Below are positions 12,143-16,209 of a DNA stretch of 64,000 nucleotides, one piece after another. The position numbers and the translations under genes were made by a program. The DNA lies in the NCBI GenBank assembly GCA_963708075.1, contig OY970194.1, forward strand, positions 3,328,001 to 3,392,000, given 5' to 3'. The stretch comes from Sedimentisphaerales bacterium (GTDB lineage Bacteria; Planctomycetota; Phycisphaerae; Sedimentisphaerales; Anaerobacaceae). The notes below the pieces were generated by a model that was not told the DNA's origin, ran no database searches, and worked only from the letters and a program-made list of their open reading frames with translations. Every line of letters begins with the position of its first letter. Position 1 is the stretch's first letter.

Positions 12143-12719
12143 ATGAAAGTTGTCGCATTCAACGGCAGTGCACGAAAAGACGGGAACACAGCTATTCTCG
12201 TCCGGCGAGTCTTCTCTGAGCTCGAAAAGGAAGGCATTGAGAACCGAGATGGTCCAATTGGCGGGCCAGACCATCCGTGGCTGCTCTGCCTGCGGCGGCT
12301 GCTACAAGAACAAGAACCACCGATGCGCCGTCGAGGGGGACATCATCAACGAGTGCATCGAGAAGATGCTGACCGCCGACGGCATCATCCTCGCCTCCCC
12401 CACCTACTTCGCCGACCTGACATCGGAAACCAAGGCCCTGATCGACCGATCCGGCTACGTCGCCCGCGCCAACGACGACATGCTCAAGCGCAAGGTCGGC
12501 GCCGCCGTAGTGGCGGTCCGTCGTGCCGGCGCCATGCACACCTTCGACTCCATCAACCACTTCTTTCTGATCAGCCAGATGATCATCCCAGGCTCGAGTT
12601 ACTGGAACATCGGCATCGGCCGTGCCAAAGGCGAAGTCGAGCACGACGAAGAGGGCCTGCGAACCATGCAAACCCTCGGCCAAAACATCGCCTGGCTGCT
12701 CAAGAAGCTGAACGCCTGA
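12143..12719 (+). CDS. Iron-sulfur flavoprotein / NADPH-dependent FMN reductase (flavodoxin family); one-base frameshift at 12239-12245
   Basis: [16 protein letters not shown] in one frame, then CSACGGC...C...[12 protein letters not shown] in the next; removing one A from GAGAACC joins them (GIE-TEMVQL). Confidence 0.88.
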
Positions 12720-12866
12720 CGACAATTCACAGAGGCAAGCTTGCGCCAATGGCATAAAGGAAACAAATACGACCGGTGCGGATTCCGATGCAGCCGCGCC
12801 CGTCTCGCCGATTCTCCACGGCCCCCTTCGTGGCCTACAGCAGACTCATGCAAGGGTTAAGAGCAC

Positions 12867-12929
12867 AGCGAACGGCGGCGGTGAACCTCGCCGCGTTTCG
12901 CGGCGTAGTGTTCCACCGCCTTGTTAGCC
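12867..12929 (-). mobile_element. Integron attC site (63 bp) closing the TIR cassette
   Basis: Minus strand GGCTAAC-AAGGC-GGTGGAAC-ACTA-CGCCGCG-AAA-CGCGGCG-AG-GTTCACC-GCCGCC-GTTCGCT: R''/R' cores, 5/6-nt spacers, L'' with one extra base, inner stem; the gene's TAA stop lies inside R''. Confidence 0.85.
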
Positions 12930-14507
12930 CGTAATCCTGCTTGCAGTGTGAGAGTCCAGAATCCATTTCGGCACATCCGAACCGTAATGCCAAGAGAACG
13001 GGTCCTTGGTCTTTCCGCAGTAGTCACCGATGGCCACAACACCACGTAGCACAAGTCGAATGGGGTCGAGCGACTCCATTGCATCGCACCTCATGCTACT
13101 GAACGAGAATGATGACGCAGCAGGCGTGGGTCCCGTTTCGTCCTCAAGAATCACGATAGCGGCCTTGCCGTCGTTTACGCTGTGCGCTTGCCATGAACGA
13201 GACTCTGATCGCGCTGCGGGGTGCTGCAAGAGCGTATCCATGATGAGTTGCAGATCAGTATCGCCGTTCGTGGCATGCAGAAGCCCCTCCAGGCCGCGGA
13301 AGCGGACGCGCGGTTCTTGGTCAGTCAAGAGTGTGAGCCTCGTTTTCACGGTGATCCTGTTGTCAGCGCCCCATACTGCGGCGGCAGTCTCTCGCACGCG
13401 CCAATCTTGATGTCGCGCGAGTATCCCGAATCTATGCGCCGCGTCATTGAAGGAGGCGTGACGAAGTTCCATGCCGGCCAAATGGGGGTCATTCGTGAAA
13501 ACGAGCCAGACAAAACGGGGTGCGCCCTCTGTCAGTCCGGCGAGCGACGTGGATGGGGTTATGAGGTAGCGGAGAAGGGCTTGGCCTCCCTTCAGGCGAT
13601 TCGGACTCCCTGCATACTCATTAAGGCAGTTGAAAACGTCCGAGTGAGGTCGTTTTGACTGTGCCAAGAGCAGGGCAGCGATGGCTCCGACTTCCGGTAC
13701 GGTGTGGGTCAGCCATTTCCTCAGGTATGCCCGAGCACTGGGTGCAATCTTGCGTCTGTTGAACGCTTCTGACAGTACCAGCGCACTCCCGATGGCGATT
13801 GCCGGATGGGTTGTGGCACTAAGCGCTTCTGTCGCAATCTTCAGATCAACATCCTTACCCTCTATCTTAGCCGACCACGCTGCGCGTTGCGCAGTCTCAA
13901 GGTCGGCTCGCAGTATTCCGCCGATGCAGTTGGTCAGGGCTCCGGCTGCCTGTCCAGACTCGCTCCGTATGGACTCAACGACCGCAAACATGCCAAGAGA
14001 GTCTGGGCGCGGAGATGGCAAGGCAGCGCCTTGGTCCTGCGGAATCTCCACCGGTTGCGGTGCGACGATGTCGCGGACAAGCTGGACCAGTTCACCCAAA
14101 GACGAACGGTATTGAAGATGCCAATGAAACTGCCTCAAACTGGCTGTGTCTACTCGCAGATCAGGGACGCTGCATGGTTCAAGCAGGACAGGCACCAGAG
14201 AAATGCTCGTCGGAGGTCGTTCGAGGGCGAGGTTGAGAGCCAATCGGTACTCACGTTGAACGTAGCCACGTTTCGTCACGGATCGGCTGGACAGAAAGAG
14301 CAAGATCACTCTGGCTTGAGCGATTCGCTCGCGAATTTCGTTGTCCCATTCCCGGCCGGGCTGAATGCCTTCTCGGTGCCACGCCCTTGGCGGGTCATCC
14401 ATCCATGGGTTGAGATCCGCTTTGCGCAGAGCACGATACACGCCTACGACGCGCCGCCGATCCTCTTTGGCGTAGCTCAGGAAAATGAGTGGCTTCGTGT
14501 GTAGCAT
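12924..14507 (-). CDS. TIR-domain protein with HEAT-like repeats (gene cassette)
   Basis: IFLSYAKED...PWMD...PGREWDNEIRERI..ARVILLFLSSRS..RGYVQRE...LVPVLLEPC (TIR_2); DWRVRETAAAVWG and DQEPRVRFRGLEGL are HEAT-like. Confidence 0.88.
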   Translation of the reverse strand: MLHTKPLIFLSYAKEDRRRVVGVYRALRKADLNPWMDDPPRAWHREGIQPGREWDNEIRERIAQARVILLFLSSRSVTKRGYVQREYRLALNLALERPPTSISLVPVLLEPCSVPDLRVDTASLRQFHWHLQYRSSLGELVQLVRDIVAPQPVEIPQDQGAALPSPRPDSLGMFAVVESIRSESGQAAGALTNCIGGILRADLETAQRAAWSAKIEGKDVDLKIATEALSATTHPAIAIGSALVLSEAFNRRKIAPSARAYLRKWLTHTVPEVGAIAALLLAQSKRPHSDVFNCLNEYAGSPNRLKGGQALLRYLITPSTSLAGLTEGAPRFVWLVFTNDPHLAGMELRHASFNDAAHRFGILARHQDWRVRETAAAVWGADNRITVKTRLTLLTDQEPRVRFRGLEGLLHATNGDTDLQLIMDTLLQHPAARSESRSWQAHSVNDGKAAIVILEDETGPTPAASSFSFSSMRCDAMESLDPIRLVLRGVVAIGDYCGKTKDPFSWHYGSDVPKWILDSHTASRITG

Positions 14508-14520
14508 AGTGTTTCTTCTG

Positions 14521-14579
14521 GGCTAACGTCCCCGCGAACCCGCGGCGCGTTAGCCACGTATGGCCGCCGGTTGTTGGCC
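14521..14579 (-). mobile_element. Integron attC site (59 bp, degenerate L box) between cassettes 1 and 2
   Basis: Minus strand GGCCAAC-AACCG-GCGGCC...CGTGGC/GCCGCG stem...GGTTCGC-GGGGAC-GTTAGCC, 15 nt after the cassette 1 stop and 13 nt before the TIR ATG. Confidence 0.7.
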
Positions 14580-14594
14580 GCCGATAATCTCCGT

Positions 14595-15059
14595 CTATTC
14601 ATTGAAGAAGTTCTCAGGCCACAAGAACTCGGGCAAATACTGCCTAATCAACACGGATGCCCAATCATACCCTCTCTTTTCCAGCTCCCTGACGAAATAG
14701 GGCCATGGTGGGATATTGCTCATATAGACGTCCGCAGAGGACGTGGACATACCCCCACCTTGGGACGTCGACAAACCTCCATACTGGGAAGTCGATAAGC
14801 CGCCGTATTGTGACGTAGACAAACCGCCATACTGAGATGTCGAAAGTCCGCCGTATTGAGACGTAGACAGTCCTCCGTACTGAGAAGTGGACATTCCTCC
14901 ATACTGCGATGTGGATAGACCGCCATATTGAGACGTAGAGGCACCTCCATACTGGGAAGTGGACATACCACCGTACTGCGCCGTGGAGAGTCCTCCGCCT
15001 TGGCTGGTACTCAGGTTCCGAGGCCAGGTTCGCATGTTTGGTATGATTAGCCGACTCAT
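14595..15059 (-). CDS. Octapeptide-repeat protein, 11 x [LMA]ST[SA]Q[YG]GG (gene cassette, 154 aa)
   Basis: SD GAGGAG before ATG 15059; 24-nt units with heavy synonymous variation but conserved peptide. Confidence 0.85.
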   Translation of the reverse strand: MSRLIIPNMRTWPRNLSTSQGGGLSTAQYGGMSTSQYGGASTSQYGGLSTSQYGGMSTSQYGGLSTSQYGGLSTSQYGGLSTSQYGGLSTSQYGGLSTSQGGGMSTSSADVYMSNIPPWPYFVRELEKRGYDWASVLIRQYLPEFLWPENFFNE

Positions 15060-15115
15060 GGTTTGTTCTCCTCTGTCCGGCCCTCTGCATCCTGATGGGA
15101 GGACATTGTTCCTCT

Positions 15116-15181
15116 GGCTAACAATAATTAGATGGCCCCGCATAAGATGCGGGAATCCTCGTTTCGGTCCGTATAAGACGC
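15116..15181 (-). mobile_element. Putative attI-like site with two 13-bp direct repeats
   Basis: Minus strand CATCTAATTATT-GTTAGCC (core at 15116-15122, no attC hairpin upstream); direct repeats CCGYATAAGAYGC at 15138-15150 and 15169-15181. Confidence 0.55.
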
Positions 15182-15318
15182 CACCGGATTTCCTATCGAA
15201 GGCGAGATAAAGCCTGCTCTGCCAATCAGTTGCCGTTGTCTCAAGCGCTTATCACCGTCTGTTGTGCAGGTCGTCTCTTGCGCTGCCACCATGCGATTCT
15301 CTCCAACTGTCGCTCGCG

Positions 15319-15347
15319 ATTGTAGCCTGCCCTGTCGGATAGGTCAA
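15319..15347 (-). promoter_or_regulatory. Near-consensus sigma70 promoter facing the cassette array (Pc-like)
   Basis: Minus strand TTGACC-N17-TACAAT, about 200 bp upstream of the attI-like core. Confidence 0.7.
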
Positions 15348-15491
15348 GCGGGCAGGCGGCGATATCCGGTTCCGCCGTCCTGTTTACGCTTTCAGGAGAA
15401 AGAGGGGCATCGGGCGGGCCAGAGGCAAGGCCGGGCAGGGTGAGGAGGGCACGCGAACGATGCAAGTCTTCGGCCGGAATATGGCTTGGCA

Positions 15492-16209
15492 TCACGCACT
15501 GCCCTTGGAGGCGAAGTACATCTTGTGCAGGAGGGGGCCGTGGCTGTGGATTGTCGGGCGCCTGCTCGGCGATGAAGGTGTCGATAGCCTTCGTGGCGCC
15601 GCGGAAGACTTCGTTCGCGTAGTCGTCAAATACACAGCAGCCGCCGGGGGAAAGGCGGGGCCAGATCGTTCTGGCCGCATAGAGCATGCTGTCGTGCAGG
15701 TCGCAGTCGATGAAGGCGAACGCGAACGGGCCGGGCAACGACTCAAGTGTCTCCTGGAACAGGCCCTCGACCAGGGTAATCTGTTCAGCCACGCCCAGGC
15801 GCTCGATCTTGCGCCGGACATACCGCAGATCGTTCTCCGTGAAGTCGCCGGCGCCTGGAGCGTCGCCCTGTTGACGCTCTCTGGCGAACTCCGCGGGATC
15901 AAAGCCGCGGAAGGTGTCGCATGCGTAGATTTGCTTGTTGCAGCCTCGTTCCCGCAGGTACCTGGCCATCAGGACAGTGGTGCCGCAGAGGAAACAGCCG
16001 CACTCAATGACGTCACCCGGGATACTGAGCGTCATCTCCAGTCGCCATAGCAGCGCCTCGACCTCCTCGTCGCACGTCAGGCTCTGCTCGTATCTCACCA
16101 TGTCCGTGGCATACAGAGAAGGAAAACGCAGCAGCAGCTCTCGTTTGAAGCGTCGCCGCCACAGAGGTGGAAGACACCCGCCCAGACTTCGTACGATTCT
16201 CCCGTTCAT
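15492..16209 (-). CDS. TylF/MycF/NovP-family O-methyltransferase; probable one-base frameshift near 15558
   Basis: PGDVIECGC..CGT, IYACDTFRGF, VEGLFQETL, FAFIDCDLHDS, LSPGGCCVFDDY; a natural-looking C-terminus (TIHSHGPLLHKMYFASKGSA) lies in the adjacent frame. Confidence 0.8.

Follow-up and report, generated by a model that had tools for sequence, protein, structure and literature searches.

How does a pair of gene cassettes come to lie behind a promoter and an attI site in a genome in which no integron integrase gene (intI) is found, and can such an array still be loaded? This question is raised by a 64,000-nucleotide stretch of Sedimentisphaerales bacterium DNA (contig OY970194.1, positions 3,328,001 to 3,392,000; hereafter the window), at whose positions 12867 to 15347 an original prediction, made from the sequence alone, had placed an integrase-less integron platform. 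Re-reading of the window sequence finds every element of that platform at its predicted place on the minus strand, in the order promoter, direct repeats, core, gene, attC, gene, and attC. Our answer, which we hold to be probable, is that the locus is a reverse-integron platform from which intI has been deleted, that the promoter of the lost gene would now feed attI and the cassettes, and that only an integrase from outside could load it. No intI is adjacent, and that the platform possesses a real attI and real cassettes is supported by the homology of its attI region and by one canonical attC. The features are as follows.

15319..15347, minus strand: sigma70-type promoter TTGACC-N17-TACAAT, a homologue of the intI promoter, pointing at the cassettes (spacer and sequence comparison)
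15273..15304, minus strand: presumed former intI ribosome-binding site, start codon (15292), and first 7 codons (junction at 15273/15272)
15128..15292, minus strand: 54-codon leader open reading frame (ORF), in which the intI start continues in frame into the native attI leader; its stop is the TAA in the attI L box
15116..15272, minus strand: reverse-integron attI region, with 150 bp as far as the crossover (homology to intact integrons)
15181-15169 and 15150-15138, minus strand: attI direct repeats, 13 bp each, within the attI region
15134-15128 and 15122, minus strand: attI L box and crossover G, respectively (core)
14527..15121, minus strand: cassette 1, 595 bp, with ORF 15059-14595 of 154 amino acids (Pfam PF20080)
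14521..14579, minus strand: attC1, 59 bp, decayed (fold, box pairing, covariance model)
12873..14526, minus strand: cassette 2, 1654 bp, with ORF 14507-12924 of 527 amino acids (TIR domain, HEAT/ARM solenoid, and C-terminal beta-sheet)
12867..12929, minus strand: attC2, 63 bp, canonical (fold, box pairing, covariance model)
12720..12872, minus strand: right arm of the array, fixed; at this locus in relatives it follows many different last attC sites
12143..12719, plus strand: flavodoxin-like FMN reductase gene (PF03358), a flank, convergent with the array
15406..15490, plus strand: decayed copy (74%) of the flavodoxin gene 3' end, across the platform from the gene itself
15493..16203, minus strand: TylF-type methyltransferase gene (PF05711), outside the platform and not found upstream of the same array in the relative L145

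The leader ORF (15292-15128) and the flavodoxin 3'-end copy (15406-15490) are features that the original prediction did not contain.

A reverse-integron attI site and two cassettes

A sequence search with the attI region (15272-15116) gives 24 matches, which are spread over 16 of the 24 genomes of the genus, and in G006 and G012 the match lies ~150 bp 3' of a co-directional intI. When these relatives are aligned, both repeats, the L box, and GTT are conserved, and divergence starts directly past GTT. An attI-like motif is also found 138-169 nt past intI in 17 of 80 IntI loci from several phyla, a count that has no chance control and includes many loci too short for the motif to be seen. Judging from these comparisons, the attI in the window is a genuine site of the reverse-integron type. 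In reverse integrons such as that of Treponema denticola, intI is transcribed toward attI, and attI lies 3' of intI, as stated in the cited passages (PMC3607928, PMC4889954).

Of the components of a complete integron, the window thus has attI, by homology to a site beside an intact intI, and attC-bounded, co-oriented cassettes, of which attC2 is canonical and attC1 decayed; of intI itself, only 7 N-terminal codons remain. The reverse orientation is given by the relatives with the same attI and by the orientation of the intI start remnant. Since there is no intact integrase, the locus is a deletion derivative, not a full member, of the reverse integrons. As a side observation, the 150-bp attI region is bounded in relatives by an inverted repeat, which is decayed in the window (15272-15259 and 15150-15138). 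The deletion junction lies at the upstream copy of this repeat, which looks like an inverted repeat plus L box without an R box.

The attC sites were scored with a covariance model built from 23 attC sites of relatives and IntI loci, excluding those of the window and two near-copies; in the genome scan, 150 of 5461 first-look candidates were scored with this model. attC2 gives a match at 12867-12929, where the original prediction had proposed such a check, and this is the sole match among the genome candidates scored. Its fold has a z-score of -4.3, none of 200 shuffles being equally stable, and its boxes pair at 7/7 positions for the L box and, in the predicted circular form, at 7/7 for the R box. 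The TIR cassette (cassette 2) begins G|TTAGCC, and the first bases of its attC are exactly complementary, just as had been read. Of the two attC sites that had been proposed, attC2 stands, but attC1 does not stand as an intact site: its length and ends are correct, while its L boxes form 3/7 pairs, as they do in the sister allele L145, and it folds as an inner 35-nt hairpin (z -1.3 and -2.1). These features make attC1 a likely poor recombination substrate, and cassette 1 is probably locked in place because attC1 is decayed. Viewed as an attC cluster without integron-integrases (CALIN), the locus has no intI nearby and two attC sites that score 29.2 (attC2) and 17 bits (attC1) by our own 23-sequence model, the second being a weak local match (E 0.11).

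The cassettes might instead lie at an ordinary genomic site, entered by the attG route that would leave a lone attC without integron-integrases (SALIN) or a small CALIN, with a promoter upstream by chance. Small intI-less arrays are proposed to originate in this manner in the cited part of a preprint (10.1101/2022.09.11.507474), and there is just one strong attC at the locus. However, the 150 bp upstream are a full attI region homologous to intact integrons, and an IntI remnant is found at the same locus in L128. A SALIN at an attG site is expected to have no other att site or platform nearby, and here attI is present. We consider such an origin highly improbable.

The source genome is a single contig of 7.5 Mb with 60% G+C, rated 92.8% complete. 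No intI is adjacent to the platform, as had been noted; the flanking genes are those for the flavodoxin and the TylF protein. The original prediction took the array to be a satellite that has a cassette promoter (Pc) of its own and may be loaded by an IntI encoded elsewhere, here understood as another place in the same genome. In favor of such an arrangement, attI, the promoter, and attC2 are all intact, and an intI could be missing from an assembly of this completeness. Against it, the best genome-wide match to TIGR02249 is 82 bits against a 265-bit cut-off, so that no IntI is found above the cut-off in the contig, and the G006 IntI as a query retrieves only generic tyrosine recombinases from it. 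The attI motif search gives one match in the genome, that of the window, so the second attI or further motif copies for which a search had been suggested are not found, nor is any other attC among the candidates scored. Furthermore, the promoter traces to intI itself, as described below. A satellite array loaded from within its own genome is therefore very unlikely.

A promoter and start probably left by a lost integrase gene

The promoter sequence (15347-15319) agrees with the consensus at 10 of 12 positions, a match that is not significant when taken alone, with 2 promoter-like sites found against 1.3 expected. It belongs to an 87-bp element (15358-15272) that has three further copies in the genome and matches in 18 of the 24 genus genomes, and that reads as a promoter, a ribosome site, a start codon, and ~7 codons. 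A known RNA was tried as an identity for this repeated element and rejected, Rfam containing no match (a scan of 11-17 kb gives zero matches at E up to 5), and the element was then explained as the 5' end of intI.

The comparisons with IntI loci carry this explanation. The same start precedes IntI sequence in L008, L059, L067, L074, L079, L128, L153, L232, L238, and L284, and intI in G012 and in L153 opens with a start of this kind. L128 has the flavodoxin locus of the window with an IntI remnant, a second attI type, and another cassette; here the start, with the same promoter type as in the window, is joined in frame to IntI residues 261-304. In L079, L059, L067, L232, L238, and L284, it is joined to internal or C-terminal pieces of IntI. 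The 17-bp promoter spacer of the window is identical at 13/17 positions to that before the L128 remnant, at 10/17 to those of L074 and L153, and at 7/17 to that of L008. These comparisons make it very probable that the promoter and start derive from a deleted intI. The retained Pc-like promoter of the original prediction is accordingly better described as a homologue of the promoter and start of a deleted co-directional intI. As intI and the cassettes are co-directional, the promoter of the former would have become that of the latter, and it likely drives the two cassettes now.

The reading frame across the junction should be noted. The seventh intI codon in the window runs in frame into the native attI leader to give a frame of 54 codons, which ends at TAA in the L box. 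Among equal-length fusions, 11 of 12 keep this frame open (4.6 expected, P 0.0002); if copies with indels are included, 11 of 15 do so (5.7 expected, P 0.006). The encoded peptide drifts, with 68 silent and 161 replacement changes. An open leader with a drifting peptide fits a role of translation, by analogy with ORF-11. ORF-11 and ORF-17 of attI1 are likewise short translated frames ending at or in attI, for which translation, not the peptide, is thought to matter according to the cited passage (PMC8876359). The window leader differs from them in its 54 codons, its use of the former ribosome site of the integrase, and its unrelated sequence, and its role is putative.

Copies of the intI-type promoter and start are also observed apart from attI. 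At G000:C1:1334227, 5316457, and 6515640, they lie before unrelated accessory genes, and in the relatives L104, L095, and L097, the intI-type start is fused in frame to ordinary genes. Because such attI-less copies front unrelated genes, in some cases fused in frame, the old intI start appears to act as a portable expression signal. Sixteen of 62 distinct promoter copies have attI within 300 nt.

Integrase-less platforms in relatives and their probable loading in trans

The intI-less state is the rule in this lineage. The genus set consists of 26 platforms (24 from the attI search, together with L081 and L106 from the promoter-element search), of which one has a full intI, 22 have the intI promoter and start only, and 3 have neither; counted among the 22 is G012, whose intI is without its C-terminal part. 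The 22 platform loci that were mapped fall on 9 chromosomal sites. In the order sample of 201 genomes, 23 further attI cores are found in 17 genomes of other genera; within 1.4-1.65 kb upstream of them, a full intI occurs at none and C-terminal remnants at 2. Nevertheless, 19 of the 23 have no more than 3 mismatches from the 28-nt consensus. A full-score intI is found in 2 of 61 relative genomes. Since the genomes are incomplete, absence in all these counts means 'not found'. Two of the arrangements can be mentioned separately. At L121 and L123, a pair of intI-less platforms lies in tandem on a single contig, and both platforms have cassettes of their own. In L234 and L235, a two-gene module resembling a toxin-antitoxin pair separates the old intI promoter from attI, at 830-130 nt upstream of the latter; the module is flanked by a short direct repeat, and the L234 array also holds a second promoter-attI relic.

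Platforms with the same junction differ in what they carry. In the 15 that share the junction of the window, 14 different cassettes take the first position, and two of these are distant homologues. In a comparison of G021:C42 with G007:C408, both intI-less, 96.8% identity over 844 bp extends to GTT and is followed by different arrays, the hosts being 82-87% alike. This pair suggests loading in trans. Differently loaded alleles, for which the original prediction proposed to look in relatives, are present. The flavodoxin locus shows one and the same right arm joined, at GTT/GTC, to 11 different upstream sequences among 18 hits. On such sequence patterns, loading in trans is likely.

Possible donors are found among virus-classified contigs. 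L251 (2001-3700) carries an intact IntI of 83% identity, attI, and a cassette of the small multidrug resistance family, and a viral integron of this type is a possible IntI donor. L250 (2950-3030) carries the same attI family without intI in 3 kb on either side and has an AbiGi-like cassette. Phage-borne integron parts are described in the cited part of an earlier study (PMC9892861), which these viral contigs with the attI family of the window resemble, with intI in the case of L251 and without it in that of L250.

Several observations weigh against the deletion of intI followed by loading in trans. None of 31 distinct metagenome copies of exactly the promoter type of the window stands before an intact intI, a protein search with the ORF of one promoter copy found nothing, and the sole full intI of the genus (G006) has a different N-terminus. 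A DNA alignment to intI past codon 8 beats all shuffles in 3 of the 6 promoter copies tested. Selection on the leader peptide was considered and is unsupported by the silent and replacement changes given above, and the open frame may be an inheritance from native leaders. A single origin of the fused leaders was rejected in a tree test, in which they do not form one clade (p-AU 4e-6); repeated deletion, on different complete integrons, or conversion of leaders may account for this, and either event weakens the argument that the platforms were loaded after the deletion. The crossover is damaged in several fusion copies (L051, one L123 copy, L140, and L148). Finally, the window and L145 have the same two cassettes, with 23 differences over 2256 bp, of which three fall in the left arm of attC1; the two are identical starting at the second repeat and ~70% alike upstream. 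This switch at the second repeat implies that homologous recombination swaps parts without IntI.

Some of these points favor a frozen relic, which would share the origin by intI deletion with the promoter left behind but in which all cassettes would have been captured while intI was present, attI would now be unused, and arrays would move by RecA-type exchange only. In detail, intI deletions would have recurred at short microhomology, and exchange would take place between the conserved repeats and the fixed right arm. The non-monophyletic fused leaders, the crossover at the second repeat that separates the window from L145, the decayed attC1 in both, the failure to find IntI in the genome, and the presence of comEC in it are consistent with such a relic. 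So is the observation, in the cited part of a preprint, that Xanthomonas strains with a common intI lesion usually have a common array (10.1101/2025.06.18.660453). On the other side, the G021/G007 switch is located at the fourth base after the crossover G and is preceded by 98 of 100 identical bases, the attI core stays near the consensus in the 19 intI-less copies mentioned above across families, and with full intI so rare, donors with a matching attI would be scarce. We regard the frozen relic as rather unlikely, though it deserves serious consideration.

The history that we favor, a platform with intI deleted and loading from outside, would run as follows. A complete reverse integron would have settled behind the flavodoxin gene, as L128 and the scar of the 3' end suggest. 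intI would then have been deleted from about codon 8 to just past the stop, its promoter becoming that of the cassettes; the homology is observed, and the deletion and the promoter activity are presumed from it. With the intI start joined in frame to the attI leader, as is seen, ribosomes would reach the attI L box, a putative role. attI and attC2, both intact, would be usable by an IntI visiting on phage or transferred DNA, as the comparison of G021 with G007 suggests. Homologous recombination at the conserved repeats would also exchange platforms and arrays, a swap that is observed for L145. Cassette 1 would stay locked by its decayed attC, and cassette 2 is predicted to give phage defence via TIR NADase activity.

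Cargo, insertion site, and place among known integrons

The cassette 1 protein contains nine 8-residue repeats and belongs to PF20080, with 278 homologues among 7999 candidates and no named function. The first cassette of the sole intact integron (L063, G006:C917) also encodes a short tandem-repeat protein, of a 10-residue unit and of a sequence unrelated to cassette 1.

The cassette 2 protein has a TIR domain (PF13676, 67 bits), and its predicted structure (mean pLDDT 85) consists of the TIR domain, a HEAT/ARM solenoid, and a C-terminal beta-sheet. It has ten full-length or near full-length homologues at 34-71% identity. The position of Glu86 should be noted, since this residue is nearly invariant in 12 homologues and occupies what we take to be the position of the catalytic glutamate of TIR NADases. 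PADLOC gives weak TIR hits only, and sequence and fold searches of the PDB give merely generic HEAT/ARM and TIR matches. No ThsA partner of a Thoeris system is adjacent, the other cassette and the two flanking genes being PF20080, FMN_red, and TylF. The cassette 2 product is a candidate anti-phage TIR NADase. Integron cassettes often encode phage defence, according to the cited part of a preprint (10.1101/2024.07.02.601686), and the AbiGi-like cassette of L250 resembles the cassettes described there. The TIR-HEAT protein differs in being beyond the PADLOC models apart from the weak TIR hits, and the term 'TIR' does not occur in the main text of the preprint.

The 3' end of the flavodoxin gene is an insertion hot spot in the genus. 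In 8 of the 18 genomes whose flavodoxin locus was compared, one to three copies of this 3' end bracket small convergent cargoes. The copy at 15406-15490 appears to be a scar of platform insertion at the gene. One-sided homologous insertion is a mechanism by which such an end copy can arise, and repeated one-sided, homology-facilitated insertion at the flavodoxin 3' end possibly took place. The tandem 3'-end copies in L036, L037, L038, L039, L047, L048, and L049 have their 5' ends at ~nt 265-530 of 577. The bracketed cargoes have their own promoters, and many resemble toxin-antitoxin pairs by eye; no integrase gene was noticed on inspection of them. The cassette of L128 at this locus encodes a 541-residue pyridoxal-dependent decarboxylase, and its attC is very like attC2. 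Elsewhere, at G000:C1:6272467-6273669 and in the 4616602 region, conserved genes seem to be trailed by partial 3'-end copies 2-4 kb downstream, as judged from a scan for duplicated gene ends that is noisy, with shadow ORFs and paralogues included. The flavodoxin (~12240) and TylF (~15545) genes of the window appear frameshifted relative to their homologues, possibly through long-read indel errors.

There are precedents for reverse integrons, CALINs, intI loss, and attI leaders taken singly. The window shares with reverse integrons an attI of the co-directional intI type and differs from them in that it, like 25 of the 26 genus platforms, is without a full intI and has the promoter and start fused to the attI leader. 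For T. phagedenis, attC sites without intI are reported in a passage that is silent on attI or a promoter. With CALINs and SALINs, as characterized in the cited passages (PMC4889954; 10.1101/2022.09.11.507474), the window shares attC-bounded cassettes, the absence of intI nearby or in the genome, and a short array; unlike them, it retains attI, a promoter, and a leader, its origin by intI deletion is traceable, and one of its two attC sites is strong. Ninety-five percent (95%) of CALINs are reported there to be without a recognizable intI pseudogene, and a 7-codon remnant would escape such a search. Xanthomonas integrons likewise show widespread intI loss within a lineage, with arrays that persist (10.1101/2025.06.18.660453, cited part). 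They differ in having one main locus and usually the same array with the same lesion, whereas the genus described here has 9 sites and many first cassettes per junction. Integrase inactivation is common, at 43% in the cited passage (PMC3108266). Reports of intI promoter reuse after deletion, or of integrons in this order, were not found in a full-text search that covered few subscription papers and no supplements. The origin of CALINs, their expression, and their ongoing loading in nature are described as open questions in the passages cited (PMC4889954; 10.1101/2022.09.11.507474).

The locus and its relatives form a graded series in which intI is first intact, then partly deleted, and at last reduced to 7 codons; they also supply an attI that is defined for a clade of reverse integrons, and pairs from nature whose sequences part precisely at the crossover. 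Owing to these, promoter reuse and loading in trans can be put to a direct test using short pieces of DNA and a single natural integrase. The series also suggests that intI loss is underestimated by searches for pseudogenes, and the cassette pool, with its TIR-HEAT and AbiGi-like members, offers candidates for phage-defence screening.

For Sedimentisphaerales as a whole, we tentatively propose, at somewhat less than even confidence, a distributed non-autonomous integron system. In such a system, reverse integrons would settle at many chromosomal sites and shed intI there, ~235-bp docking units of promoter, leader, and attI would be kept under selection, cassettes would be expressed constantly, and a rare integrase visiting on phages or transferred DNA would reload the units. 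If this is true, the integrase would be costly and shed by deletions that spare its promoter and start, many small CALINs without a visible intI pseudogene would share this deletion origin, and the reverse orientation would provide a built-in route from a complete integron to an expressed, still loadable CALIN.

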